IMG/VR virus record: IMGVR_UViG_3300014720_002669
Length of the DNA: 64,000 bases
Strand: one strand, 5' to 3'
Origin: a virus
Shown here: positions 2,279-37,066 of the stretch, piece by piece
How positions within the stretch are numbered: the first letter of the stretch is position 1
Layout: the number at the start of each line of letters is the position of its first letter
Translations under genes and position numbers: made by a program
The notes under the pieces: model-generated
What the model saw: the letters and a program-made list of their open reading frames with translations, nothing else
Told to the model about the DNA's origin: nothing
Databases searched by the model: none

Positions 2279-2737
2279 ATGTGGCTTTTACACTTCTTAC
2301 CTGACGCACTCATACTCTGGATCTGCAACATTGTATTGCTGGCAGGCGTGTTGCTGACTGTCACAGCATTTTTCATCAAGCGCATTCCTGTGATAAACCA
2401 GTACCGGACGCCTGCACAAGTCCTGGGCATCGCACTGCTGGTCATGGGCGTGTACTGGCGTGGCGGTTATGCTGTGGAACAGGAATGGCGTGAACGTGTG
2501 GCTGAAATGGAAGCCCGTGTAGCGGCTGCTGAAGCCAAAAGCGCAGAAGAAAATGTCAAAATTGTCACCAAGGTTGTGACAAAAACACAGGTAATTCGAA
2601 CACGTGGCGAAACTATAACCAAGTACATTGACCGTGAAATAATCCGGTACGATGAAAAGTTTGCGCCTGGTGGTCAATGTGAAATACCACAGGAATTTAT
2701 TAAGGCGCACAACAGCGCAGCAGAGGCACCCAAATGA
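2279..2737 (+). CDS. Putative i-spanin (Rz-like)
   Basis: N-terminal TM helices, then coiled coil, VTKVVTKTQVI and a C-terminal C..P.EF..AHN; in the lysis module. Confidence 0.6.
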   Translation: MWLLHFLPDALILWICNIVLLAGVLLTVTAFFIKRIPVINQYRTPAQVLGIALLVMGVYWRGGYAVEQEWRERVAEMEARVAAAEAKSAEENVKIVTKVVTKTQVIRTRGETITKYIDREIIRYDEKFAPGGQCEIPQEFIKAHNSAAEAPK

Positions 2738-3837
2738 AAGTAAATGAAATTATATTAGAATCAGTGACTCATATGAGACCAGTCAATGAACTGGCACCCA
2801 GTCCAGGTGGTGCCGGTCCCAGCGACTATTTTCGTGTGTTAGCATCGGCCTGGTACAATCATGACATCAGTCAACTGGCTGACATTGCCAGAAAAGGTGG
2901 ATCACCCATGAAGAAAATCATGGACGCACAAGTGGCCGTGGAAAAAATGCTGCAACGTGGTGTGATTGGCAGCGACGGCAAAACACGCAAGTATGATATC
3001 TCATACAACTCGGACTTTGATGGTGTAGTGATTTCGAGTGCCGACTACTACGAGCACAGTGACTATGACGCTGCCGGCAATGAAGTTGACAGTCGCTCAG
3101 GACGTCCCTGGGGACCAAATGATTACATGGAGTTTGATGGCGACGAACTGGACGAAGGCATGTATGAAAACACAGAACTTGTGGCGGAATTTGATCTCAT
3201 TGAGAGTATCATAAACCGGCTGGCTGCTCACAACGGTGTCGAGGCTGAAGTGATCTGGGAGGATCTTGAAAGCCTCACCGAAGATGAACTGTATGCATTT
3301 GCTGTGACTTCAGAACCCATCATGGAAGGCAAAGGCGTGACAGAAGCATTTGGTTTATACGGTCCATTTACTGTGACCATCAACACCGGTGAGCGTCCGC
3401 AATCAAGAACCAAAACCAAAAAGTTCCGTAGGGAAGATGATGCCATACTGTATGCTGAAGATTGGTTGGAAGATGCTCCACAATATGTGTTCGCAACAGC
3501 CAAAGTCACTGACCCAGAAGGCAACGTTGTTTGGACCACGAATGAAAGTTTAGAAGAACAAGGTGTGGCGGAAGACTGGCAAAAGGCCAACAAACGTGAC
3601 CGTACCGCAGGCATGAGTCAAAAGGCTGTGAATGCCTATCGCAGAGAGAATCCTGGTTCAAAATTGAAAACTGCTGTGACCACCAAGCCTTCAAAACTCA
3701 AGCGTGGGTCAAAGGCCAGCAAACGCCGAAAGAGTTATTGCAGTCGCAGTCGCGGACAGATGAAAATGCACAGCATCAGTTGCGCCAAAACTCCTGACAA
3801 GGCCATTTGCAAAGCACGTAGACGTTGGAACTGCTGA
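2734..3837 (+). CDS. Modular putative capsid-internal protein
   Basis: MKVNEIILE N-terminus; modules bounded by VNE, LDE, IME/GVTE, QGVAE; basic Cys-rich C-terminal module. Confidence 0.6.
   Translation: MKVNEIILESVTHMRPVNELAPSPGGAGPSDYFRVLASAWYNHDISQLADIARKGGSPMKKIMDAQVAVEKMLQRGVIGSDGKTRKYDISYNSDFDGVVISSADYYEHSDYDAAGNEVDSRSGRPWGPNDYMEFDGDELDEGMYENTELVAEFDLIESIINRLAAHNGVEAEVIWEDLESLTEDELYAFAVTSEPIMEGKGVTEAFGLYGPFTVTINTGERPQSRTKTKKFRREDDAILYAEDWLEDAPQYVFATAKVTDPEGNVVWTTNESLEEQGVAEDWQKANKRDRTAGMSQKAVNAYRRENPGSKLKTAVTTKPSKLKRGSKASKRRKSYCSRSRGQMKMHSISCAKTPDKAICKARRRWNC
3557..3574 (+). repeat. 18-bp AACAAGGTGTGGCGGAAG, copy 1
   Basis: Identical to 30003-30020. Confidence 0.85.
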
Positions 3838-4158: not shown

Positions 4159-4776
4159 ATGGAACTTACACTACAACAATTAAAACAAATGGTGCCGGGC
4201 ATACCCCATGCTGAAAACTGGCTGGAAGCCTTGGATCAGTTACTGCCAGACTACGAAATCAACACACCTCGTCGTGTCGCTGCTTTCATAGCACAGTGCG
4301 CACACGAGTCCGGTGGGTTCCGTTTCATCAAAGAAAACTTGAACTACAAAGCAGAGAGTTTGAGAAAAGTATTTCCCAAGTATTTTCCCACAGACGAACT
4401 GGCTCGAGCCTATGCCAAGAAGCCTGAAATGATTGCCAACCGAGTGTATGCGTCACGCATGGGCAATGGTGACGAACACTCAGGTGATGGCTATCGTTAT
4501 TGCGGACGTGGCTTGATACAACTCACCGGCAAAAGCAACTATGAAAACTTTGCTGCCAGCCTGGAAATCTCACCCGAAGAAGCAGCCGAATACCTGGGCA
4601 CATTTGAAGGTGCTGCACAATCAGCCTGCTGGTTCTGGGAAAGCAACAACTTGAATGTGGAAGCCGACGCTGGAGACATCAAGAAAATGACCCGGAAAAT
4701 AAATGGCGGATACATTGGATTAGCCGATAGGGAGTCTCATTATCATCATGCCCTAGAAATATTAGGAATACGATGA
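4159..4776 (+). CDS. Glycoside hydrolase family 19 endolysin
   Basis: FIAQCAHESGGF, ENLNY, YCGRGLIQLTGKSNY, INGG motifs. Confidence 0.92.
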   Translation: MELTLQQLKQMVPGIPHAENWLEALDQLLPDYEINTPRRVAAFIAQCAHESGGFRFIKENLNYKAESLRKVFPKYFPTDELARAYAKKPEMIANRVYASRMGNGDEHSGDGYRYCGRGLIQLTGKSNYENFAASLEISPEEAAEYLGTFEGAAQSACWFWESNNLNVEADAGDIKKMTRKINGGYIGLADRESHYHHALEILGIR

Positions 4777-5378
4777 ACTATTTGGAATGTTATAATAATC
4801 TTGTAGAATCAAGACAACAACTACACCGTTCAAAAGGTCAAGGTGTTTATTTTGAAAAACATCATATTGTCCCACGTTGGCTTGGTGGCAAGGATACAAA
4901 AGATAATTTAGTGCTGTTTACAGCAAAAGAACATTATATTGCACATCTTTTATTATGGAAACATTACAGAGATAGACCGAGTGCTTTAGCATTTCATAAG
5001 ATGACTAGAAGCAATAATAAAAACCAACAAAGAAAGTTTACTTCGTTACAATTTAGAAAAGCCAGAGAGGCATTTGTTCAAACGCAACTTGGAGAACTAA
5101 ATTGGTCTAGTAAAAATTTATCACCTTTAAAAGGTAAACCTAGTATAAACAAAGGTAAAAAATTAGGCAAACGAGATTGGATGACTGGCGATAATAATCC
5201 TAGTCGCCGACAATCAGTAAGGGAAACAATTAGTGCAGCGTTAAAAGGACGTAAACGGTCTGATGAACATAACAAAAATTTACAAGCAGCACTCACGCCT
5301 GAAATTAAAAAATTAAGGTCTCAAAAAATTTGGGAGACACGAAGACGAAATCAATTATTAAAATTACAAGGAGCATAA
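4773..5378 (+). CDS. Free-standing HNH homing endonuclease with NUMOD3-like basic tail
   Basis: EKHHIVPRWLGG..DNLVLFTAKEHYIAH; ISAALKGRKRS; markedly AT-rich. Confidence 0.88.
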   Translation: MNYLECYNNLVESRQQLHRSKGQGVYFEKHHIVPRWLGGKDTKDNLVLFTAKEHYIAHLLLWKHYRDRPSALAFHKMTRSNNKNQQRKFTSLQFRKAREAFVQTQLGELNWSSKNLSPLKGKPSINKGKKLGKRDWMTGDNNPSRRQSVRETISAALKGRKRSDEHNKNLQAALTPEIKKLRSQKIWETRRRNQLLKLQGA

Positions 5379-14620: not shown

Positions 14621-17600
14621 ATGAACATTCATGAGCTGGCTACTTACAATCTTGATGATGCTGTAAAGTTTCATCAGCGACTCAATCCTGTACTTTGGGC
14701 AAGAGACGAACATCTCTTGCCTGAAGTGCGCAACAAGTTGTTAAAAATAGCAGCAGACTTCCAAGAATTCCTGGGAGTAGAGGATCTCAAAGTAAAAGAC
14801 ATCACTGTGTCTGGATCCAATGCTGCTTATTCTTACACCAAACAATCCGACATAGATCTACACCTGGTGGTCGAAATGCCCAACGATCCGGTGTATCAAG
14901 AGTTGTTTGCTGCCAAAAAATATCAATACAACACCGAACATGACATCACCATAGGTGGTGCTGACGTTGAACTGTATGTGCAACCAGATGATCAGCCACA
15001 TCACAGTCAAGGCATTTATTCAATCAAGAACTCAGACTGGGTAAAAGTACCACAACGCAAACGCAGTCAAATAGATGACACCTGTGTGTTGGCCAAGGTA
15101 GATGATCTGGCCACCAGAATCAAATCTGCCATTGCCAGCCAGGATAGATCAGTAATGGATTCGTTGTGGAAAAAAATCAAAATCATGCGCCAGAGCGGTT
15201 TGGAAAATCATGGCGAGTTTGGCTGTGAGAATGTTGCATTCAAACTGCTGCGAAACAATGGCAGCATTGGCGCATTGAAGTCAGCTATAACAGCAGCACA
15301 AGATCGTGAACTGAGTTTGCCGCCTAAAAAACGTGTGCGCTATGGATTTTCAGAAGACGTGACTTCCACCCCTGACGGAGTCAGTGCCAGCACCAACATG
15401 TTTTTGAACGAAACACCTGTGAGCAATGTTGTGCAGTCTTTTGTGCAAGATGTAGTGCAACGCCTGGGCATTGAAAACATGCCTGAAGTAGTTTTGCACG
15501 ATGATCCTGACTGGAGCAAACAAAACAACAGCTTTGGTCAATACAATCCTGACACACGAACTTTGCATGTGAGTTTGGTTGATCGCCATCTACTGGACAT
15601 ATTGCGAACAGTGGCACATGAGCTCACTCATTGCCGTCAAAACGAGCTGGATACATTGCCAGATCATGCTGGAGAAACTGGCAGTCGTTGGGAAAATCAA
15701 GCCAATGCTCAAGCAGGCATACTCATGCGTGACTTTGCAGATGCCAATCCTGAGTATTTCAACGAGTCATACACTCAAGCAAAAAGTTTGCAGTCATCCA
15801 TGAAGACCTTTCGTGCCAAAGTACGCATCAAAGATCGATACGGTAGTCCGGCTATTGAAGCACAGGTAGTGGCCAGAAACCATGACATGGCCAGACAAAT
15901 GTTGAGAGCTCAGTACGGTCCTGACAGTGTGATCAGCACAGTGACCGAGCTTAAAGAAAATGCATCGGGCTATATTCCCAAGAACCGACGAGAAGCAGCC
16001 ATGCCTCGGTATGCCATGGCTCTTTCAGTGGATATTAAACCTGGCGAAGTTGGCAGACAAGCCAACAAACTTGCTCTGAAAACTGGACGCAATGGTGAGC
16101 CTGGTTTGCTGCAACCCGATGCACAGAATCTCTTGCGTGAGTTCAGCGAATTTGTGACAGAACAAGATCAGTTGTTTGAAATCACCATGAGTCCTTCAAG
16201 CCTGAAGAAGTTGAGTGCGCAGACTGGTGCCTTGGCCGGCATGGAATTTGAAATGATTGTGCCCGGTACCGGGGATGATGACGGCGATCTAGAACCTGAC
16301 TACGACTTTGATGAACGTTGTCGCAGCATTCAGGATGCCCGTGATTTTTTCTATGACGGTGACTACAACGGTCGTCGAGATATTCAACGCATGAGTGATC
16401 GCATGCAGAATGACTACGCAGAATGGTTGTATGAAAGACTTGACACCGACTTTACCAACAACAGTGAAAATCTCATTAGTGAGTGGATCTCAAACAATGT
16501 GGACGAATCAAAGTGGAATCCTGACGATCTTGAAGGCGAGGCTCGTCAGGAAGCCCTGGCGGAATTTGTCGCCAATGTTGATGCTCGTCCCAGCAGTGAT
16601 TATTATCAACAGGCCCTGGACGAGTATCGTGAAGAAAATCAGGGCAGTTATGACGAAAGCGACTGGTTGGATGCCGAAGATCTAGACCTCATGAGTGGCG
16701 TTGAAAACGCCTACAATATAACCTGGCCACATTGGCGCAGCACAGGTGGCGGTGAAGTCAGCACTGAGGAAGTGGCCGACAGTTTCAGCAACGCAGTGGG
16801 CCGTCCTTGCCGAGCCAGCAGCAGTTATCACTCAAGCCGAGTACCACGACCCAGCAAAACCAATGTGAGTTATATTGTGGAACCTGACAGCAGCCTGGAA
16901 CCAGATGATGCCAATGACTCTGGCCTGGAGTTTGTGAGCCCACCCCTGCCCATTGAAGAACTGCTCAGTGATTTGAACAAAGTTAAAAAGTGGGCTGACA
17001 AGACAGGTTGCTACACCAATGATTCAACTGGCCTGCACATCAATGTGTCAGTACCTGGTTGGTCTGGCGGCTCAGAAGGCCTGGACTATGTGAAACTGGC
17101 AGTGTTGTTAGGTGACGAATATGTGCTGGATGCATTTGGTCGCGCAGGCAACACCTATGCCAAGTCGGCCATGGGCAAGATTCGTTCAATAATCAAACAA
17201 AATCCTGCCAAGGCAGAAGAAATGCTGGAACGCATGAAGTCTGGCATGGATCAACTGGCCAGCCGCGCCATACACTCAGGTGCCACAGAAAAATACACGT
17301 CAATCAACAACAAAAATGGCTACATTGAATTCCGCAGCCCAGGTGGCGACTGGTTGGATGCCAACTTTGATCAAATTGAAAACACCTTGCGACGTTTCAC
17401 AGTGGCTCTAAGTGCTGCTGTTGATCCCCAGGCCTACAGACAAGAGTACCTAAAGAAACTGTATAAACTTCTGGATGTCAAGAGTGAAAAAGATTCCTTG
17501 AGTTATTTTGCACGATATGCCGCAGGCGAATTGCCCCGAGCCGCGCTGAAGAGTTTTGTGCGTCAGGCCCGACTGGAACGTGATATACAACGTGGCAAAA

Positions 17601-19582
17601 CAGGCGAGGAAGAATTCAAATGGGAAGTTGGCAGACCAGGTTATGGTGCTAGTATCATTGTCCGAGCCAAAACCAAAGAACAAGCCATTGACCGAGCCGT
17701 GCAACCAGATGGATACCCCGACTGGGCCAGTGCCAGAAGTCAACTCACAGCCCGGCCCATAGGACCAGTCGACACCGCCCCAGTCAGAGCCACTGCAGGT
17801 GAACCCCAGGCCGTTGGACAACAAGGCAACTGGGGCATTTGGATGACTGGTGAGAATCGTTTCAGCCGAGCACCAGGCCAACCGGACCCTTCTGTATATC
17901 GTAGATTTGCCAGTCGTGAGGCGGCTGAACAATACATTGAACAACAACGTCAAACGTACCCCGGTATGCGTACCGACATTGAAGTGCGTGAGATTGAACC
18001 CAGTGCCGCAGCACAGGCCATGGGACAACAAGGTGCAGCCATGCTGGGCGATCGACCCAGCAACCCCGATGGCAACTATGTGATCACGCCCGAAGGAGAT
18101 CGCACCAGCGTTTACTATCGATTCCAAGCAGTGGACATTGATGATGCCAACACAGTGTTGCGAGCCTGGCGACAGCAGTATCCCAATCAAGTGTGGTTGG
18201 CTCAACGCGACGACAGCAGAACGTTGGGACAACCGCCTGTGCCAGGATCTACCCTGGACCTACAACGTCAACGACTTGCGGCCACACCTGCATATGGTTT
18301 TAGAGATTTATTTTCAACCACCCCAGATCAACAGCAAGGCGGCAGACCTCATGATCCCACAGGACGCTATGCCATTGTGGCACGCAGCGACACAGCAGTG
18401 CATGGACGCACAGGCGGTCCAGCCCCCTACTACTATTTCAGATTCAACATGCAGAATCTTGAAGACCAAGGCCACGGACGATATGTTCTACAGGCCTGGG
18501 CTGCCAGAAATTCAGTGAACACTGATGATTACATGGTGGTTGATACCACTCAATATGCAGATGATGCTGCTCAAGGTGGCACAGTGGATGTGGCCACAGA
18601 CCGACCAGCACAGCGTACAGGCGGTGAGTTTACTGGTGAGTGGCGGGTCCTAGTCAACGGCCAAGAAGTGTATAGATTCAGTGGTGCAGGCAACAGTCAA
18701 GCCGATGCTAACAGAGTTGCCGCTGATTGGTTGCGTCGCAATGGAATGGGGGTGAGTGGCGAAGGCTTTGAAGTGTATCCGGTGATGGCAGAAAGTCTGC
18801 AAGAGGCCAAAGGCAACCGTAGAAAGTTTGCTGATGGCTATTTGGTGTTTAGTGATCATTTGTATGACAGACTACGCGATCACAGCATCAGTCAAGACGC
18901 CGTTGAGCAATTGTTAAGAAAACTGGAAGTGCGCAGATCTATTGATTTAATTCGAATGCCATACATTGACTTTGTAGTCAAAACTCCAGATTTAGCATTG
19001 GCCATTGCTAAAACACGTGACCAAAATGACAACACAGCGTTTGTTGTCAGCACAGTGCGTCAAAATTTGCGCTCAGGACCTGACCAAGATGTAGTTTATT
19101 TAGAAGATATGCCACAGCCCAGTCACGGTCCAGGACAGATCAAAGATCTAAATGAACCCTTGGGGCCAGAGTCACCACCCCAAATGCCCGCGGGCACCAT
19201 CAAAGTAGATGTGTCAGACATGTATGACTGGTATAAATTGGGACAAAAGATATCAGACCTGGACAGCATCCGGCCTGGAGAATTGGGTTCAGGACCACCA
19301 TCAACTGTGTTTGCATTTGGCTCAGAAGACCTAAAGAACATGTACAGTCATGCGCTCACACGACTGGGATTGAAGACACATGATTTGGATGAGCCTGGCG
19401 AAGAGGACATTGACGAAAACTTTGCAGACGGCCGGAATCCACAAGACAAGGGAGATAGTGCTAGGCATGGTATACCAAAGAAGGCCTCATTAGCAAAGTT
19501 AGACAAAATAGGACATGGGTCAGGCCGTAAAGCACAATTAGCCAGATGGCAGGCGAATATGAGACGTGGTCGTGCTAAATAA
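14621..19582 (+). CDS. 1653-aa polyvalent protein: nucleotidyltransferase + HExxH metallopeptidase + amidoligase + small modules
   Basis: GSNAAY..SDIDLH (Pol-beta NTase); VAHELTH..WENQAN; GMEFE, DSS, LEFVSPP, STGLHINV, IEFR (COOH-NH2 ligase). Confidence 0.8.
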   Translation: MNIHELATYNLDDAVKFHQRLNPVLWARDEHLLPEVRNKLLKIAADFQEFLGVEDLKVKDITVSGSNAAYSYTKQSDIDLHLVVEMPNDPVYQELFAAKKYQYNTEHDITIGGADVELYVQPDDQPHHSQGIYSIKNSDWVKVPQRKRSQIDDTCVLAKVDDLATRIKSAIASQDRSVMDSLWKKIKIMRQSGLENHGEFGCENVAFKLLRNNGSIGALKSAITAAQDRELSLPPKKRVRYGFSEDVTSTPDGVSASTNMFLNETPVSNVVQSFVQDVVQRLGIENMPEVVLHDDPDWSKQNNSFGQYNPDTRTLHVSLVDRHLLDILRTVAHELTHCRQNELDTLPDHAGETGSRWENQANAQAGILMRDFADANPEYFNESYTQAKSLQSSMKTFRAKVRIKDRYGSPAIEAQVVARNHDMARQMLRAQYGPDSVISTVTELKENASGYIPKNRREAAMPRYAMALSVDIKPGEVGRQANKLALKTGRNGEPGLLQPDAQNLLREFSEFVTEQDQLFEITMSPSSLKKLSAQTGALAGMEFEMIVPGTGDDDGDLEPDYDFDERCRSIQDARDFFYDGDYNGRRDIQRMSDRMQNDYAEWLYERLDTDFTNNSENLISEWISNNVDESKWNPDDLEGEARQEALAEFVANVDARPSSDYYQQALDEYREENQGSYDESDWLDAEDLDLMSGVENAYNITWPHWRSTGGGEVSTEEVADSFSNAVGRPCRASSSYHSSRVPRPSKTNVSYIVEPDSSLEPDDANDSGLEFVSPPLPIEELLSDLNKVKKWADKTGCYTNDSTGLHINVSVPGWSGGSEGLDYVKLAVLLGDEYVLDAFGRAGNTYAKSAMGKIRSIIKQNPAKAEEMLERMKSGMDQLASRAIHSGATEKYTSINNKNGYIEFRSPGGDWLDANFDQIENTLRRFTVALSAAVDPQAYRQEYLKKLYKLLDVKSEKDSLSYFARYAAGELPRAALKSFVRQARLERDIQRGKTGEEEFKWEVGRPGYGASIIVRAKTKEQAIDRAVQPDGYPDWASARSQLTARPIGPVDTAPVRATAGEPQAVGQQGNWGIWMTGENRFSRAPGQPDPSVYRRFASREAAEQYIEQQRQTYPGMRTDIEVREIEPSAAAQAMGQQGAAMLGDRPSNPDGNYVITPEGDRTSVYYRFQAVDIDDANTVLRAWRQQYPNQVWLAQRDDSRTLGQPPVPGSTLDLQRQRLAATPAYGFRDLFSTTPDQQQGGRPHDPTGRYAIVARSDTAVHGRTGGPAPYYYFRFNMQNLEDQGHGRYVLQAWAARNSVNTDDYMVVDTTQYADDAAQGGTVDVATDRPAQRTGGEFTGEWRVLVNGQEVYRFSGAGNSQADANRVAADWLRRNGMGVSGEGFEVYPVMAESLQEAKGNRRKFADGYLVFSDHLYDRLRDHSISQDAVEQLLRKLEVRRSIDLIRMPYIDFVVKTPDLALAIAKTRDQNDNTAFVVSTVRQNLRSGPDQDVVYLEDMPQPSHGPGQIKDLNEPLGPESPPQMPAGTIKVDVSDMYDWYKLGQKISDLDSIRPGELGSGPPSTVFAFGSEDLKNMYSHALTRLGLKTHDLDEPGEEDIDENFADGRNPQDKGDSARHGIPKKASLAKLDKIGHGSGRKAQLARWQANMRRGRAK

Positions 19583-19589
19583 TGTTATC

Positions 19590-20186
19590 ATGGCACACGT
19601 TTATATCATCACAAACAAAATAAACAATAAACAATACGTCGGAGTGACCAATAACTCACTTCAAGAAAGATGGAAAAGTCATCTGTATGACAATAAGATC
19701 ATTAGCAAGGCTATCAAAAAATATGGCAAAGAAAACTTTTCCATAGAAGCAATACATGAATGTGATACAATGGATGAAGCGTACATTCTTGAACCAAAAT
19801 TTATTATTGAACATAATACCAAATACCCAAATGGATACAATGTATCGTCGGGAGGCAAAGGATCGCAAGTTGGTAAACGCAAGCCCACTCCAGATCATGT
19901 CAAGCAAAAAATAAGTGAATCAATCAAGAAAAATCATTACTGGAACAACTTGTCTGAAGAACAAAAAGAAAAATGCAGAGAAAGTTGGCGGGCAAACAAT
20001 CAGTCTCGTATAGGGCAAAAAAGAAGTTCATATAACAATGGATTATTCAAAAAAACTGTTTGGATCAACAACGGCGAACAGAGAAAACGAGTTCCAGAAT
20101 CTGATATAAATGACTGGATATCAAATGGGTGGATACGCGGGCACATGAACGGTGTAGTCAACATGAAATTTGGACATAAGAAATGA
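19590..20186 (+). CDS. Free-standing GIY-YIG homing endonuclease (Seg-like)
   Basis: HVYIITNKINNKQYVG..ERWKSH..E..GYN, NUMOD3-like segment, WINNG; AT-rich. Confidence 0.88.
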   Translation: MAHVYIITNKINNKQYVGVTNNSLQERWKSHLYDNKIISKAIKKYGKENFSIEAIHECDTMDEAYILEPKFIIEHNTKYPNGYNVSSGGKGSQVGKRKPTPDHVKQKISESIKKNHYWNNLSEEQKEKCRESWRANNQSRIGQKRSSYNNGLFKKTVWINNGEQRKRVPESDINDWISNGWIRGHMNGVVNMKFGHKK

Positions 20187-20620: not shown

Positions 20621-21199
20621 GTGAGACACCACGAAATCACTCAAGAAGCATCGCCCAACACCTGGGCAGGCAGTTTTACTCCTGACCTGGTGGCCAGCAA
20701 GACCTGGTTGACCACACAGTTGAAAAAACAACTGGCCGGTGCGTCAGCTGGCGACGTCTATGTGCTGGGCAGTTGGTGGGGCAACACAGGAGTGTTTATC
20801 CAGCAGGCCGGCATTGAGTTTGATCGACTGATCATGGTAGAACGGCGCAGATACTTGTTGGCCAGCACCAAGATGCTGTTGAACGACCTGTGGCAACAAG
20901 GACGCTTGGTATTGTGGCATCAGGATGCTGCCAACATCCAGTATCCCACCAATCGAACCATCACAGTGATCAACACCAGCAGCAATGAAATGCCCAGAAC
21001 TTGGATCACTCGAGTGCCCCGGGGCACACTCACAGTGATACAGTCAAGGGACAATGTCAAGGATGTCAAGGTCATCACTGACACAGCAGCACAGTTTTAT
21101 GCCAAGTTTCCCTTGAAAACCACAGTGTACTGGGGCGAACGCCGACTGCGAGATCCAGAAACACGCTACCGACGCTGGATGAAGATTGGCTATAAATAA
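20621..21199 (+). CDS. Putative class I SAM methyltransferase-like protein
   Basis: SKTW, VLGSWWG, acidic beta2, QDA, VINTS, RWMKIG; GTG start. Confidence 0.55.
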   Translation: MRHHEITQEASPNTWAGSFTPDLVASKTWLTTQLKKQLAGASAGDVYVLGSWWGNTGVFIQQAGIEFDRLIMVERRRYLLASTKMLLNDLWQQGRLVLWHQDAANIQYPTNRTITVINTSSNEMPRTWITRVPRGTLTVIQSRDNVKDVKVITDTAAQFYAKFPLKTTVYWGERRLRDPETRYRRWMKIGYK

Positions 21200-21205
21200 A
21201 CAACT

Positions 21206-21559
21206 ATGACGTACAAAGAAATTCTTGAAGCCTGCTGGACTGGTTATCGCCAAGCAGGCATGAAAAACAAAGGCGGGCGCCAGGTGCCCAATTGCGTGCC
21301 TGTGCGCGAAGCCGAAATAGAAGAAAATCTTCGTGACTGGTTCAAACAAAAGTGGGTGCGTTTTGGTCCTGATGGAAAAATCCGTGGCGACTGTGCTAGA
21401 GGAAGTGAAAAGGAAGGCAAGCCCAAGTGTTTGCCCCAGGCCCGGGCGCACGCACTGGGTCGAAAAGGTCGTGCCAGTGCAGCGGCTAGAAAACGGCGTG
21501 AAGATCCCAACCCCAACCGTACAGGAAAGGCCATCAACGTGGCAACTAAAAAGAAATGA
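21206..21559 (+). CDS. Small modular basic protein
   Basis: MTYKEILE + CWTGY..VPNCVP module + IEE-NLRDWF module; exact TATAAATA at 21191. Confidence 0.7.
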   Translation: MTYKEILEACWTGYRQAGMKNKGGRQVPNCVPVREAEIEENLRDWFKQKWVRFGPDGKIRGDCARGSEKEGKPKCLPQARAHALGRKGRASAAARKRREDPNPNRTGKAINVATKKK

Positions 21560-22707
21560 TCATAAGCGAACTATTTGAAGAGCCACAACAGTGCCCCGAA
21601 TGCGGTGGCATCAGTTTCTCAGACTTGATCCTGGCTGAAAAGAAAGACGCCTGCTACCACAAGGTCAAGGCATCAGCCAAGGTATGGCCGTCGGCCTATG
21701 CATCCGGACGCTTGGTACAGTGTCGCAAAAAAGGTGCCGCCAACTATGGCAACAAATCAGAAGGTGTATCAGAAGCACCACTACCTGGACAACGTCGAGG
21801 CCCATTAGATTTGCAACCACTGGAAGGTGGTGGTGTTGGTGGCGGTGGTGGTTTCGGTGGCCCAACTCGAAGTGGTCCTTCACAATTTTTTGGTCCCAAA
21901 CCCGGGTCACGTGAAGCATCTGTTGCTCAGCCCAATCCCAACACTATGACGGTGAAACAAAGTCCAAACCCTGACTATCGCTCCCCATCTCAACAATCTC
22001 AAACCACAGGTGATAAACCAAAAATCAAAGTCAATCCTGGTGAAACCGTACCTCAGGCCATAGAACGCACAAAAACCCAACAAGAATTTGGCAAGTTCCT
22101 ACAAGGGCAAAGTGGTCAAACATTTGGCGCCGGCGCTGGCCGTGGCTCAATAAATCCAGCGCCAACAAACACCATGAACAACACACCGGTCAGTGTTAGA
22201 AATAAGCCATCTGCTATGAATTCCATGGCCAGAGACTTGACCAAGACCCCCACGTCAACTAGACAAAACACTCAGACTGAGCCAGTCAAACAATCTGAAC
22301 CAGTCAAACAACCTGATCCGTTTGACTTGCCACTTGACGTTGGTGCAGCACGTCCAGGTTTTGACGGTAGAATGGGCTCAACACCAATGCCAAACAGAGC
22401 AGACAAACAGTCATCCATGCTTGGAAAAGCAGGCAAAACACTGGGATATGGAGCAGCCGCTTATGGTGCTGCTGACTTAGGTTCACGTGCCCTGGACTAC
22501 TATGATCAAAATTATTCTGAGGTTCCTTATGTTCCTCAGATCAAGGAAGCCAAAAAACAACCACCCGAAGTGGAATATGATGACGAATATGATGCCATGG
22601 TGGCCAGAGTTAAAAAGTTGGCCGGACTGGGTCCGCTTAAAACTGTGTACGATCCCAAACGACGTCAGTATCGCAACCAGCCCACAGTCCAACAGCCTAA
22701 AAAATGA
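21556..22707 (+). CDS. Modular low-complexity protein
   Basis: MIISELFEE, CPECG, LAE-KKDACYHKVK module, GVSE, G/P/Q-rich region, IKE. Confidence 0.65.
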   Translation: MIISELFEEPQQCPECGGISFSDLILAEKKDACYHKVKASAKVWPSAYASGRLVQCRKKGAANYGNKSEGVSEAPLPGQRRGPLDLQPLEGGGVGGGGGFGGPTRSGPSQFFGPKPGSREASVAQPNPNTMTVKQSPNPDYRSPSQQSQTTGDKPKIKVNPGETVPQAIERTKTQQEFGKFLQGQSGQTFGAGAGRGSINPAPTNTMNNTPVSVRNKPSAMNSMARDLTKTPTSTRQNTQTEPVKQSEPVKQPDPFDLPLDVGAARPGFDGRMGSTPMPNRADKQSSMLGKAGKTLGYGAAAYGAADLGSRALDYYDQNYSEVPYVPQIKEAKKQPPEVEYDDEYDAMVARVKKLAGLGPLKTVYDPKRRQYRNQPTVQQPKK

Positions 22708-23309
22708 GAGCACAGGAGTTTGTCATAGAGCGCAAAAAAAGCCGCCGAAAAAAATCCAGCCGGCACGGTGGATATTTCTTTCCAGGATATGCCTACTATA
22801 GCAGTGGTGGCGATTCCAGTGAAGGCGGTGGAGACGGCGGCGGCGAATCACGTTCAGGCACACCGGAAGGCAAACGTATTGCAAGAAAGCCTGGGCAACC
22901 AGCAGCATCAAAAAAACATTCAGATCTTTACACAGATGAGAATCCTCGTGGCACCATCACCGGTTTGAAATTTGCCACGGTGGAAGATGCTCGAGCCAGT
23001 GTAAGTAAAATACGAAACAGTGGCCGCAGTCATGCACACAAGATACAGGCAGCTGTGGCCATGGAACAACGAGCCCGTGCAGCCGGCAAAAGTGATGCAG
23101 CAGCAGTGTATAGGCGATTCATTGACGCCAACAAAAAAACTGAAGAACAGCAATTAGACGAACTCAGCTTCCTAGGATCCCAATGCACCAAAGACTGCTC
23201 AGGTCACAGAGCCGGATACGAGTGGTCAAAACGCAAAGGACTACGTCAGGCCAACTCATGGTCACCCAGTTTCAACAAAGGCGCTGGCCTGGCAGTGGCA
23301 GGAAAATAA
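22704..23309 (+). CDS. Modular basic protein
   Basis: MRAQEFVIE; HSDLYTDENP module; LDE-LSFLGSQCTKDCSGH module. Confidence 0.65.
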   Translation: MRAQEFVIERKKSRRKKSSRHGGYFFPGYAYYSSGGDSSEGGGDGGGESRSGTPEGKRIARKPGQPAASKKHSDLYTDENPRGTITGLKFATVEDARASVSKIRNSGRSHAHKIQAAVAMEQRARAAGKSDAAAVYRRFIDANKKTEEQQLDELSFLGSQCTKDCSGHRAGYEWSKRKGLRQANSWSPSFNKGAGLAVAGK

Positions 23310-29971: not shown

Positions 29972-31507
29972 ATGCTGATAAACGACTTATTCAACAATAA
30001 CAAACAAGGTGTGGCGGAAGGCAGGTTTGATGAACCACTAACAGGATGGCATATTGTTTATCGTAATTCAGGTAATCCAGTTCATGCTACTCCCAGTTTT
30101 GAAACCAAAGAGCAAGCACAAAAGTATCTAATGACACGAATGTTTGCCAATCACCAAGATTACAAAGTAGTTCATACCGCAGGTGTAGGTGTGGCGGAAG
30201 GTGAAGTCATTCCATTCAAGAGGCCCCAGTCACAGACCGCAGTGTCTTGGCAAAAACTGCCCAAAGATGTATTGACCCTGGCAAATGATTGGTACTGGGC
30301 CGACTACGAAGGTGGTGGATCTGCTGCCATAATGGATCCCAAAGGGCTAGGCAGCGGATTTGCAAATCAAAAAAAATATTTGGGTGCTCAACTGCAACAA
30401 CGAGGATGGGCCATTGACTTTGATGACGAATTTGAAAATGTTGTATTGAAAAACAAGCAAGGTCAAACAATTTTGTTGCCCATTGAGGATGCACAGACTT
30501 TCTCGGGCTGGGCCACGGGCATCAATCTTGTCACAGAGCAAGGTATGGCAGAAGGCAAAGCCGATTACAACTTTGATATTGAGGATTTGAAACGCCTTGA
30601 GCAAATTAGAGATCTAGCAACACTAAAAGCACAAGCATTAGAATTGATCAGTAAACCCAGTGCCAAACCAATGAAACCAGAAAAAGTTGAATGGTTTAGA
30701 AATGCTCTGAATCGCATGGACAGTCCGTTAAAAGTCATAAAGTTAATGTATGATTTGTTGCTCAGTGGCGAAGGAAAAGCCGTGGTCGGATCCAGGTCAT
30801 CAATGAACCCCAACACTTATCGTCAGAGGTTTGGTGAGCAAGGCATTGTGGAAAATCAAGATTGGATGAAAGATTTAGCAGCCAAGGCCGCTGCCATGTC
30901 CAAGCCTGGCACACCATATGTGCCACCAAAGCAAGACGCTGAAAAGGCACGTCGTGATCTCACAGCACGATATCCCAACATTGATGAACTGGTCGCGGCT
31001 GCTGAAAAACGTCGTGATCCCTACTATCAATATGCCGAAGGCCCAGCCTACTATCGGGGCCGCGAAGCCGAACATGAATATCAACGACTGCGACAGATCC
31101 AACGTGTGATTCAAGGTTTGAACGAAATGAACTTTGGCGGTGTAGGCCAAACCACAGATTCAGCCACTGGCGATATAACCACCAGTTTCAATCAAGGTCC
31201 GTTGTCTGTGTCGCAGACCAAAACGCCTGGCGGTTATACAAAACAAACTGATCAACAAGTCAACCTGGGCACAGCAACGCTGGGCGCACGAACGGTTGGA
31301 CCCAACATTGGCGCAGGTCAGTTGGCTGGTACCACAACCAAGACTGCCACAAACAACATTACCGGACAGGCCAAACAACAAGTCAAAGGAGTTGGCTTTG
31401 GTGGTGCCACAGGTGCCACAGTGGGCAAAAACTACGTTGATCAATACAGCGTAAATGAAAACGTGGCACGCATGCAATATCTGGCAGGTATTCGACCAGC
31501 CCGATAA
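29972..31507 (+). CDS. Cassette-built polyprotein with repeated QGVAEG junctions
   Basis: QGVAEG, VGVAEG, QGMAEG, QGIVEN, LNE, VNE; ends RMQYLAGI. Confidence 0.75.
   Translation: MLINDLFNNNKQGVAEGRFDEPLTGWHIVYRNSGNPVHATPSFETKEQAQKYLMTRMFANHQDYKVVHTAGVGVAEGEVIPFKRPQSQTAVSWQKLPKDVLTLANDWYWADYEGGGSAAIMDPKGLGSGFANQKKYLGAQLQQRGWAIDFDDEFENVVLKNKQGQTILLPIEDAQTFSGWATGINLVTEQGMAEGKADYNFDIEDLKRLEQIRDLATLKAQALELISKPSAKPMKPEKVEWFRNALNRMDSPLKVIKLMYDLLLSGEGKAVVGSRSSMNPNTYRQRFGEQGIVENQDWMKDLAAKAAAMSKPGTPYVPPKQDAEKARRDLTARYPNIDELVAAAEKRRDPYYQYAEGPAYYRGREAEHEYQRLRQIQRVIQGLNEMNFGGVGQTTDSATGDITTSFNQGPLSVSQTKTPGGYTKQTDQQVNLGTATLGARTVGPNIGAGQLAGTTTKTATNNITGQAKQQVKGVGFGGATGATVGKNYVDQYSVNENVARMQYLAGIRPAR
30003..30020 (+). 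repeat. 18-bp AACAAGGTGTGGCGGAAG, copy 2; further copies at 30187 (core) and 30536, 30836 (degenerate)
   Basis: Direct reading of the sequence. Confidence 0.85.
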
Positions 31508-31598: not shown

Positions 31599-32321
31599 AT
31601 GCAATCAACATTTACATTTGAAGATCTTTATACGTCGCCGGCCATTCCTATGGCTGTCAAGAACCAATCTTTTGTGTTTGATCAGGAGATTGTAAATTTT
31701 GATTATAATTCTTATGGTTATCGCACACACGAATTTGTCAATGTTGGAGAACACATTGCAATTTCTGGATGTAGTTTAACTGAAGGGCATGGATTACATC
31801 TACACCAAACCTGGGCCGCAAAATTTGAAAAGTCAACAAATACTCAGGTGTTCAATCTTGCCAAGGGAAGCAGTTCAGCAGAATTTGTAAGTCAGAATTT
31901 ACAGAATTGGATTAGATCACATACTCCCAAATTTGTTGTGGCTCAGTGGCCAAATCCTTATAGAAGTTTGACTTGGAACAAGTCTTTTGCAAAGTTCAAT
32001 GTGAACTCTGACCATGATGAAATTTATCGTATCAAACTTCGTAATGGTGATGAAAATTTTTACCATGGTTGGTGTAATAGCATTATAATACTAAATTATT
32101 TTTGCCAAAAACACAATATACCTATTGTCAACATGTGCCTTGAATCTTTTGACATGGTCAAACCAGCAATGCCAATTTTAGAAAAATTCAATATCGAATT
32201 GCACTATGATCAAAAAGTTCCCGGGAAGACATGGTTTTTTGACAGTGCGGCACTGGACAAAAGTCATCGCAGTGAATTTTGTAATGAAAAATGGACAGAA
32301 CGACTGCTCACTATCATCTAA
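31599..32321 (+). CDS. SGNH-like hydrolase
   Basis: NSYGYR, SGCSLTEG, NLAKGSSS, DKSH; AT-rich. Confidence 0.6.
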   Translation: MQSTFTFEDLYTSPAIPMAVKNQSFVFDQEIVNFDYNSYGYRTHEFVNVGEHIAISGCSLTEGHGLHLHQTWAAKFEKSTNTQVFNLAKGSSSAEFVSQNLQNWIRSHTPKFVVAQWPNPYRSLTWNKSFAKFNVNSDHDEIYRIKLRNGDENFYHGWCNSIIILNYFCQKHNIPIVNMCLESFDMVKPAMPILEKFNIELHYDQKVPGKTWFFDSAALDKSHRSEFCNEKWTERLLTII

Positions 32322-32373: not shown

Positions 32374-32634
32374 ATGGAAAACAAAACATTCAATGGCGAA
32401 CAGAAATTAAAACTCACTCAAATCATAAATGAAGGCATGGCCGTGATGCACGAGATTGACACCCTGCAGGGCGGACTCACAGACACCATAAAGGCCATTG
32501 CAGAAGAATTGGAAATCAAACCTGCTGTGTTGAAAAAGGCCATTAAAGTAGCACACAAAGCCGAATTTGGCCGAGCCAAACAGGATCACGAGTTGTTGGA
32601 GACAATTCTTGAAACCGTGGGCAAGACACTATAA
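32374..32634 (+). CDS. T4 DsbA-like dsDNA-binding protein
   Basis: 86-aa helical protein, IKAIAEELEIKPAVLKKAIK; next to the polymerase. Confidence 0.6.
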   Translation: MENKTFNGEQKLKLTQIINEGMAVMHEIDTLQGGLTDTIKAIAEELEIKPAVLKKAIKVAHKAEFGRAKQDHELLETILETVGKTL

Positions 32635-36343: not shown

Positions 36344-37066
36344 ATGAGAGATTATCTTAAAGACTTGGTAGAACACACACACGATCTTGGCTGCATTGAC
36401 TTGATCAAAATCACTGGAGACGACAAAGGCACAGCTATTGTGGGTGTGGCAGAAGACTTGTCAGTGGTTTTAGAAGGTGAGTTTAAAAACCCACACGTAG
36501 ATTTTATTGGCACATTTGGAATGCCCAATTTGAACAAACTAAAAATCTTGTTGAACTTGCAAGAGTACCGAGAGAATGCCAAACTCAAACTGACCAAAAA
36601 AGCCACAGGCGCACCTGATGGTATTGAGTTTGAAAATGCCACTGGAGACTTCCGCAACACCTATCGTTTCATGGCAGCAGAAATTGTGAACGACAAACTC
36701 AAAACCCCCAAGTTCAAAGGTGTGACCTGGCACATTGAATTCGAACCCACTGTGGCTGCTATTCAGCGACTGCGCATGCAAGCACAGGCCAATGCCGAAG
36801 AGCCCAACTTTCAAGCCCGGACCGAAAATGGCGACTTGAAGTTTTTCTTTGGTGATCATTCAACACACGCTGGTAACTTTGTGTTCCACTCAGGTGTGAA
36901 TGGTCAACTCAAACGTGCTTGGTCCTGGCCGGCTCAACAATTCATGGCCATCATGGCATTGACTGGGGACAAAACTATTCGCATCTCAGATGATGGTGCT
37001 GCCAAGATCACCGTGGATTCGGGCGTGGCTGTTTACAACTACATTTTACCAGCACAAAGCAAGTGA
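36344..37066 (+). CDS. Probable sliding clamp (gp45-like)
   Basis: 240 aa, FGMPNLNKL, C-terminal YNYILPA; beside the polymerase. Confidence 0.65.
   Translation: MRDYLKDLVEHTHDLGCIDLIKITGDDKGTAIVGVAEDLSVVLEGEFKNPHVDFIGTFGMPNLNKLKILLNLQEYRENAKLKLTKKATGAPDGIEFENATGDFRNTYRFMAAEIVNDKLKTPKFKGVTWHIEFEPTVAAIQRLRMQAQANAEEPNFQARTENGDLKFFFGDHSTHAGNFVFHSGVNGQLKRAWSWPAQQFMAIMALTGDKTIRISDDGAAKITVDSGVAVYNYILPAQSK

Follow-up and report, generated by a model that had tools for sequence, protein, structure and literature searches.

A short in-frame DNA connector between exchangeable modules of candidate capsid-cargo polyproteins in a giant T4-like freshwater phage

Introduction

Why would two genes of one phage share an 18-nucleotide (nt) string, read in the same frame and identical at its silent positions, at the edges of otherwise unrelated protein modules? 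The question is raised by IMG/VR virus record IMGVR_UViG_3300014720_002669, a 64,000-nt stretch of DNA (the window below), in which the open reading frame (ORF) 29972–31507 encodes a candidate cargo polyprotein of 511 amino acids (aa) with modules joined at a Q-G-V-A-E junction. The junction had been proposed, in an account made from the letters alone (the sequence-only reading), to do two jobs, serving as a maturation-protease site that releases each domain inside the capsid and as a recombination site at which cassettes are gained, lost or swapped in frame. As described here, the recombination half is strongly supported by module exchange at the motif, while the protease and capsid half is plausible from indirect evidence.

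Results

The junction motif and the 511-aa polyprotein

The 18-mer AACAAGGTGTGGCGGAAG has exactly two exact copies in the window, at positions 3557 and 30003, where 0.06 would be expected, and a copy with three mismatches lies at 30537. Its 14-nt core AGGTGTGGCGGAAG is found at 3561, 30007 and 30187. All motif copies are on the plus strand and share one reading frame, which spells Q-G-V-A-E, within ORFs 2734–3837 and 29972–31507. Degenerate versions are likewise in frame, as QGMAEG at 30539, QGIVE at 30839, KGVTE at 3331 and, in a third ORF (21556–22707), EGVSE at 21760. The two 18-mers, the additional core and these four variants all lie where the sequence-only reading had placed them, and two further degenerate boundaries, QGLNE at 31112 and GMYE at 3157, can be added. 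The peptide GVAE is encoded four times in the ORFs of the window against 0.38 expected, three of the four being in ORFs 2734–3837 and 29972–31507; the sole site outside the mosaic genes, at 36443–36454 in ORF 36344–37066, uses the Ala codon GCA, not GCG. GCG accounts for 7.3% of the Ala codons in the window and is indeed as uncommon there as had been supposed, and the probability that three GVAE sites use the same four codons by chance is 7.6e-4.

The 511-aa protein (29972–31507, plus strand, as are all features below) consists of a leader and modules A to E, with the edges of its segmental homology located at the junctions. The leader MLINDLFNNNKQGVAE (29972–30019) ends in V-A-E and is a probable capsid-targeting propeptide, judging from its likeness to the sequence by which T4 internal proteins (IPs) are targeted to the capsid. 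It overlaps junction J1, CAAGGTGTGGCGGAAGGC (QGVAEG, 30005–30022), an exact match to the consensus, which is followed by module A (RFDEPL...HTAG, 30023–30184) and then by J2, GTAGGTGTGGCGGAAGGT (VGVAEG, 30185–30202), a direct repeat of J1 on the other side of the module. Module B (EVIPFKRP..., 30203–30538) is separated by the degenerate J3, CAAGGTATGGCAGAAGGC (QGMAEG, 30539–30556), identified like J1 by motif match, from module C (KADYNFDIEDL...MKPEKVEWF..., 30557–30838), a widespread helical module that occurs in many different polyproteins. The degenerate J4, CAAGGCATTGTGGAAAAT (QGIVEN, 30839–30856), has the counterparts QGVAEN and QGVSEN in the orthologous loci L005 and L023, respectively, and leads to module D (QDWMKDL...PNIDELV..., 30857–31111). 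Last, J5, CAAGGTTTGAACGAAATG (QGLNEM, 31112–31129), past which the orthologues diverge immediately, precedes module E (31130–31504), which is composed of Gly/Thr-rich repeats and has the tail ..ARMQYLAGIRPAR. The segments between junctions had been described as unrelated domains of about 60–120 aa, and lengths of 60, 118 and 100 aa with no Pfam family agree with this. They had also been thought richer in AT; modules A and C, with 41.7% and 41.3% GC against 46.6% for the whole ORF, are modestly so, and the effect is weak.

Silent-site conservation of the junction DNA

The silent sites of the junction are conserved far beyond codon usage. The sequence CAAGGTGTGGCGGAAGGC is shared by 76 junctions with unrelated 30-nt flanks, and the information content is at background within one codon on either side. 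At 26 QGVAEG sites the codons CAA, GGT, GTG, GCG, GAA and GGC are used in 96, 92, 88, 96, 92 and 88% of cases, compared with 73, 43, 30, 6, 81 and 34%, in the same order, in the ORFs that hold these sites. A second sample was seeded with the exact 18-mer in IMG/VR, and only its non-seed junctions were scored as a guard against ascertainment bias. Here Ala is GCG at 114 of 137 G[V/I/M]AE sites, against 6.7% of 5,885 background Ala codons, and across 156 GVAE sites GGT (96%), GTG (88%), GCG (87%) and GAA (92%) prevail, every silent position being biased. The expectation of the sequence-only reading that wobble positions would be more conserved than codon usage predicts is thus borne out, most evidently by GCG (87% against about 7% background). 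Counting the 16- to 18-mer in related phages, as had also been suggested, yielded at least 120 IMG/VR stretches for the GCG form and 42 for the variant that uses the common Ala codon GCA, and one to four copies of the 12-nt core GGTGTGGCGGAA in each complete genome.

The same codon is shared between junctions of different contigs at a frequency of 0.65–0.96, and at the positions flanking them at 0.27–0.52, while in homologues of module C the codon identity at identical residues is saturated, at 0.44–0.51, below 90% protein identity. As identity is high at the junction and not at neighbouring silent sites, the silent sites of the junction must be either held or continually re-homogenised. Moreover, because the peptide requirement is loose and yet mostly one exact DNA string is used, cleavage alone is insufficient to explain the conservation. 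QGVAE is spelled within a long open frame by every one of the 60 distinct 12-nt core copies from the first loci, and by 147 of the 148 18-mer copies from the motif-seeded loci. A Chi-like genome-wide signal was ruled out, as the few copies per complete genome (1–4) are all in frame.

Module exchange with breakpoints at the motif

Modules are exchanged among these genes with breakpoints at the motif. Relatives in IMG/VR match the 511-aa ORF piecewise, over residues 11–76, 66–385, 189–295 and 315–511, with edges that coincide with junctions. The matching pieces are spread over many ORFs of 170–980 aa, in which unrelated segments are divided by (Q)G[V/M]AE(G) and the leaders are alike (M-x-I-N-D-L-F, MKLNDVILE, MFINDIF and others). 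The 367-aa product of ORF 2734–3837 shows the same mosaic behaviour in relatives.

ORF 29972–31507 occupies a hypervariable slot between Dps/orf29311 and orf32374 with the family-B DNA polymerase (PolB). Three loci, L005, L006 and L023, are orthologous to it as judged by these flanks, namely the tail of orf29311 upstream and orf32374 with the polymerase downstream, at 96% aa identity. Between the shared flanks the window has leader-A-B-C-D-E, L005 has leader-B-C-D' and then a long different tail, L023 has leader-X-Y-D and then a long tail that includes a LysM-like stretch, and L006 has a leader, 300 unrelated aa, part of D and then E twice. Module B is accordingly common to the window and L005, module D to the window and all three orthologues, and module E recurs, duplicated, in L006. 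Module A is missing from L005 precisely between J1 and J2, the empty site reading ..NNNALALTE|GEVVPF.., and it is found in other contexts in L033, L035 and L039; in L033 and L035 it is about 88% identical in DNA between quite different neighbours, with the similarity bounded by the junction repeats and that to L033 stopping at J2. In some other ORFs, of 95–99 aa, module A is the single cargo behind a leader. The orthologous slot of four large related contigs (G001, G002, G004 and G005) holds leader-bearing proteins of 300–1466 aa with other content. Between the polyprotein and orf32374 the window also has a 240-aa ORF (31599–32321), which is not present in L005, L006 or L023 and, having no relative in IMG/VR, was unusable as an anchor for orthology; it is an ORFan insertion in the hypervariable slot.

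The second polyprotein (367 aa, 2734–3837) provides a further case. Its leader MKVNEIILE and module 1 are followed by a degenerate boundary, GAAGGCATGTATGAAAAC (EGMYEN, 3154–3171; QGVAE or QGMAE in relatives), the FDLIES module, the degenerate junction AAAGGCGTGACAGAAGCA (KGVTEA, 3331–3348), which forms the left edge of an inserted module (AFGLYGPFTVTI..., 3349–3558, delimited by comparison of the same boundary across loci), and the 18-mer copy CAAGGTGTGGCGGAAGAC (QGVAED, 3559–3576), which runs into the start of a DUF6321 module (3574–3834; Pfam, E = 2.4e-9). Across loci the boundary between FDLIES and DUF6321 exists in five states: 31 distinct ORFs have the two modules fused directly (..P[V/L]ME|DWQK..), L050 has a solo junction (..IMESQGVAE|DWQK..), and L044, L046 and the window each have a different inserted module flanked by junctions. 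The prediction, made beforehand by the sequence-only reading, that orthologous loci would be distinguished by entire cassettes whose breakpoints fall at the motif therefore holds both for the three orthologues and for this boundary.

When the inter-junction segments of 225 junction-bearing ORFs were compared all against all, modules with 93–99.8% DNA identity were found whose left, right or both neighbours are unrelated. The identity switches on or off at the 18-mer (L284/L175, L150/L216, L205/L209/L298, L147/L194, L216/L218 and L233/L234), and in L229 one module is duplicated in tandem. The contigs that share near-identical modules stem from different metagenomes. Assembly chimeras were ruled out as the source of the mosaics, given that assembler k-mers exceed 18 nt, the length of the repeat, that its contexts recur across metagenomes and that the ORFs of the window are intact.

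Lineage and head genes

No cultured phage is close to the window in DNA; its source is a giant (~320–360 kb) T4-like freshwater phage. The PolB of the window is 73–85% identical to those of five IMG/VR contigs of 317–364 kb, two of which have terminal repeats; the 85% match is to G001. Four of the five (G001, G003, G004 and G005) have genes for a prohead protease of the S77 (T4 gp21) family and for a major capsid protein of the gp23 type, and the order of the head genes is that of T4: protease first, then a coiled-coil ORF of 366 aa, probably the scaffold, and then the capsid protein. The capsid proteins of G003 and G004 have T4-like maturation sites, YLAE|S and YLKE|N, which align with ..FLTE|A of T4. 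Since relatives possess a gp21-type protease and capsid genes, the appeal to gp21 made in the sequence-only reading is legitimate for this lineage.

Putative cleavage sites and targeting sequences

In T4, gp21 cuts after L/I-x-E, and ten N-terminal residues are enough to target a protein into the head (PMC9026906). The junction peptide has the corresponding form, a hydrophobic residue, any residue and Glu, followed by a small residue. Every homologue of module C has a hydrophobic-x-Glu triplet a few residues ahead of the module start, even where the DNA motif has decayed (VAE, MGE, LGE, IAE, IEE, VSE, VQE, VKE or VDE). The leaders end similarly, in VAE in the window and in LTE, VVE and VSE in the three orthologues, which retain the leader and its [LV]-x-E end without the DNA motif. 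A short-peptide likeness to the T4 capsid-targeting sequence is seen in the leaders MKVNEIILE, MRAQEFVIE and MLINDLF..VAE, the nearest being MRAQEF[V/I][I/T]E, and similar N-termini are found in the motif-seeded ORFs. Cleavage of the junctions by the prohead protease and packaging into the capsid thus appear plausible.

A signal peptide normally requires a free N-terminus. Six distinct twin-arginine translocation (Tat)-like signals (RRGFLKG.GAAA..) lie inside polyproteins, 2–4 residues past a hydrophobic-x-Glu and 3–7 past GVAE, where 21% of random positions would be within 10 residues of any hydrophobic-x-Glu; the sample is small (n = 6) and all of it comes from outside the window. Such placement fits cleavage at the junction, which would create the free N-terminus. 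Tat-like signals and Sec-like hydrophobic stretches are also seen directly past junctions in L140, L068, L133, L137 and motif-seeded loci, and it may be that some modules, once released, are exported again into the periplasm of the host.

Several chains, including those encoded by ORFs 21556–22707 and 29972–31507, end in ..[V/I]K[K/R]LAGL.. or ..RMQYLAGI... The tails ARVKKLAGLGPLKTVYDP (22600–22704) and ARMQYLAGIRPAR (31460–31504) resemble the ..IKRLAGLN C-terminus of the putative scaffold (L124, L126), and LAGL-type tails may be a second, C-terminal head-targeting element. The C-terminus of T4 gp22 does not share the ..KRLAGL.. tail, so the resemblance is lineage-specific and only suggestive. 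The slot proteins of L023 and L133 (G004:66379-70776) combine a LysM-like peptidoglycan-binding stretch with a conserved C-terminal ..VAE|SLTWS.NFDP.. past a cleavage-like site.

Other leader-bearing genes and identity of the modules

The third leader-bearing mosaic protein (383 aa, 21556–22707) has the leader MIISELFEE, a Zn-ribbon module, the degenerate junction GAAGGTGTATCAGAAGCA (EGVSEA, 21760–21777) and a low-complexity region ahead of its tail; in relatives the Zn-ribbon module is followed by EGVAE and then by varied modules. The adjoining ORF 22704–23309 encodes a single cargo behind the leader MRAQEFVIE, with no junction, and bears the nearest likeness in the window to the T4 capsid-targeting sequence; elsewhere this leader type also heads junction-bearing ORFs. 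Upstream, the 117-aa product of ORF 21206–21559 has the leader MTYKEILE, a CW.GY...VPNCVP module and a second module, both of which are also present in polyproteins encoded by cyanophage B23 and by other contigs; in L035 the genes surrounding this ORF have a rearranged order. ORF 21206–21559 is the first in the run of leader-bearing genes 21206–23309, and a T4-type late-promoter motif, TATAAATA, lies 8 nt ahead of it at 21191–21198. The motif occurs four times in the window against 0.72 expected, one copy being at 32630, directly ahead of the polymerase ORF. Finally, ORF 14621–19582 (1653 aa) has a leader-like start, MNIHELATYNLDDAVKF, and weak matches to a nucleotidyltransferase (aa 55–106) and Amidoligase_2 (aa 714–909); an N-terminus homologous to its product (MNITELNSYNLDDAVKF) begins a junction-bearing ORF in another contig, and the product may be a giant enzymatic cargo protein.

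In Pfam searches with the three polyproteins of the window DUF6321 alone was recognised, and single modules gave no informative family. Matches in PHROGs were limited to families of unknown function that are mosaic themselves. In DNA and protein searches against cultured phages the 511-aa ORF had no match and the 367-aa ORF matched only at its DUF6321 end. Elsewhere, mosaic proteins of T4-like cyanophages carry DUF6321 at their C-terminus, and in pelagiphage HTVC100P it forms a 93-aa ORF by itself. The AlphaFold2 model of module C is all-helical with a predicted local distance difference test score of 75, and Foldseek found no PDB match to it at E <= 0.001. A role of the modules as anti-defence effectors, which the sequence-only reading had offered, finds no support, since the cargo modules match no known family or fold; it is a guess by analogy with T4 IPI.

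Discussion

A model for the cargo chains

Taken together, we consider it probable that these polyproteins are leader-targeted chains of capsid cargo that are cut at the junctions, and that their modules are swapped by short-homology recombination at the connector. In the model, the products of ORFs 29972–31507 and 2734–3837, and in decayed form that of 21556–22707, would be cargo polyproteins, each with a capsid-targeting-like leader and a chain of unrelated small modules, whose joints, (Q)G-[V/M/I]-[A/T/S/V]-E-(G), would fit the hydrophobic-x-Glu specificity of gp21/S77. The leader would draw the chain into the core of the prohead, the chain would be cut there after each Glu, and the freed modules would exit together with the DNA upon infection. 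As DNA, the junction would act as a standard 15–18-nt connector, CAAGGTGTGGCGGAAGGC, and short-homology recombination from connector to connector, between co-infecting relatives or paralogous genes, would insert, delete, duplicate or swap modules in frame. Modules with the commonest connector would have the most partners and spread preferentially, which would purge synonymous variants and fix the silent positions. The motif, the conservation of its silent sites, its in-frame use and the exchange of modules with breakpoints at it are observed directly; cleavage, the responsible protease, packaging, injection and the mechanism of recombination are all steps that we infer.

Several observations weigh against this model. 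Many module boundaries in these proteins have no motif, and 18 bases are short for efficient homologous recombination; no recombinase or nuclease could be tied to the 18-mer site. The P3 residue of the junction is Val or Met, against Leu or Ile in the T4 consensus. The window itself holds no head genes, and the protease is known solely from relatives; in one of these, the linear contig G002, which does have junctions, neither S77 nor gp23 was detected, although this contig probably lacks the head block. The Tat-like signals are equally compatible with processing in the cytoplasm.

Alternative explanations

A stronger claim would be that the 18-mer is a recombination site both dedicated to an in-frame cassette system and in active use, at which a phage enzyme or a defined replication-coupled mechanism transfers modules from one cargo polyprotein to another throughout a clade of giant freshwater phages, and that the same six residues are the cut site of the head protease; this we regard as doubtful, and put it forward only tentatively.

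Closely related is the proposal that modules are mobilised not by passive short homology but by a dedicated enzyme with sequence specificity for the connector, for example a recombinase or an endonuclease of the homing type. An asymmetric, sharp-edged 18-nt site is the size of a homing-endonuclease target, all silent positions are fixed, the wobble of the first Gly most of all, the breakpoints are very precise, and the window has an HNH-type ORF (4773–5378, HHIVPRWLGG) and a GIY-YIG-type ORF (19566–20186, YIITNKINNKQYVGVT), both identified by motif only. However, no gene is consistently linked to junction-bearing ORFs and nothing ties these two ORFs to the site, free-standing endonucleases being common in all T4-like phages; neither a cut site nor a target duplication nor an enzyme was identified, and the 12-nt core occurs just 1–4 times per complete genome. 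We therefore consider such an enzyme unlikely. As an observation in its own right, the two free-standing ORFs lie near two leader-bearing genes.

The chains might instead be cut at the junctions in the host cytoplasm by another protease, the modules acting there or being exported without ever entering the capsid. Tat-like signals directly past junctions, LysM-like segments in some proteins of the orthologous slot, and the lone DUF6321 among small ORFs of a podophage without a T4-type head would all suit this account. Against it stand the resemblance of the leaders to the T4 capsid-targeting sequence and of the C-terminal tails to the scaffold C-terminus, the late-promoter motif TATAAATA ahead of the 21206–23309 cluster, and the prohead protease being the only Glu-specific protease known in the lineage, which together make it quite unlikely.

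It is also improbable that the junction is an uncleaved flexible linker, whose DNA identity merely reflects recent common descent of linker-plus-module units with no selected function. While distant homologues of module C do have decayed junctions (IAE, IEE, VSE), as would be expected if the canonical form were young, junctions of unrelated modules across metagenomes share silent sites although the synonymous sites of homologous modules are saturated. Furthermore, Glu and the hydrophobic residue persist as the rest decays, and Tat-like signals, normally N-terminal, come after junctions.

Least credible, to the point of being highly improbable, is that the silent conservation serves RNA or translation, as a rare-codon pause, a Shine-Dalgarno-like sequence or a two-layer G-quadruplex (GG-TGT-GG-C-GG-AA-GG), since the rare GCG codon at a domain boundary and the four GG tracts of the core, of which the second and third are created by the strongest biases (Val GTG and Ala GCG), are outweighed by the first Gly wobble, irrelevant to the G tracts yet the most fixed (96% GGT), by the fixed wobbles of Gln and the last Gly, by the unrelated flanks, which leave no conserved hairpin partner, and by the breakpoints at the motif, which would go unexplained. 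Specifically, a G-quadruplex and a rare-codon pause were ruled out by wobbles that are irrelevant to the G tracts and equally or more fixed, and an internal translation start by the lack of a start codon at usable spacing from the Shine-Dalgarno-like AAGG.

Comparison with known systems

The cargo chains are most readily compared with the T4 internal proteins IPI, IPII and IPIII and with Alt (PMC9026906, PMC3012670), with which they share the T4 lineage, a short leader ending in hydrophobic-x-Glu, diverse cargo behind a conserved leader and, in relatives, a Glu-specific prohead protease; in some relatives a single module follows the leader, as in T4. In contrast, T4 has one cargo per gene, cut at its termini only, whereas here unrelated modules are chained with internal candidate sites whose DNA sequence is standardised, and packaging and cleavage are predicted.

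PeSLs, repeats of the hyperplastic regions of T4-type phages, are intergenic units of a promoter and a stem-loop that move whole genes (PMC2839356; Comeau et al. 2014, PMC4122927). The connector resembles them as a short conserved repeat that serves as a recombination point, the intervening DNA being inserted, deleted or replaced between close relatives, as is also found here, but it is an 18-nt, coding, in-frame element without a promoter or hairpin and moves modules inside an ORF. The glycine-rich motifs of the gp38 adhesin (Trojet et al. 2011, PMC3157838) are likewise conserved short in-frame motifs between interchangeable segments of one T4-type gene. In gp38, however, the motifs build the core of a single domain's structure, and the segments they separate are alternative versions with the same function; the present motif is instead a linker between modules that are unrelated and fold independently, and it probably has a second role as a cleavage site. 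Polyvalent proteins (Iyer et al. 2017, PMC5512222) also combine disparate domains with predicted delivery alongside the DNA and processing into pieces, but their defining features are zincin-like peptidases and an established set of domains, none of which Pfam recognised in the three polyproteins of the window, and a standardised DNA connector is not described for them.

Finally, the sequence-only reading had called the system integron-like, which stands as an analogy only. Both systems are arrays of units that can be interchanged and that end at a short, recurring site, but the junction is asymmetric, with conservation that stops at the 18-mer on both sides and no attC-like imperfect palindrome, and what it separates are peptide modules joined in frame, where integrons have promoterless ORFs. 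No integrase family was seen in the scanned ORFs adjoining the junction-bearing genes of the window, although no search aimed at integrases was made. A full-text literature search for the GVAEG peptide returned no phage paper, and the papers searched on prohead proteases and polyproteins do not describe such a connector system.

Implications

If the model is true, T4-like phages would have a plug-and-play means of changing the payload carried into the host, as any small protein flanked by the connector could be inserted in frame into a chain targeted to the capsid and then freed by the head protease. The system would extend two known ideas, diverse cargo behind a conserved targeting leader and shuffling at conserved repeats, to protein modules within a gene. 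It would further be a rare clear case of silent-site selection for exchangeability, and phage cargo proteins would become recognisable from sequence alone. The connector may also serve the engineering of phage-delivered protein payloads in laboratory systems and, should the dedicated cassette system prove true, would constitute a standard connector for loading any small protein into the capsid for delivery to the host.

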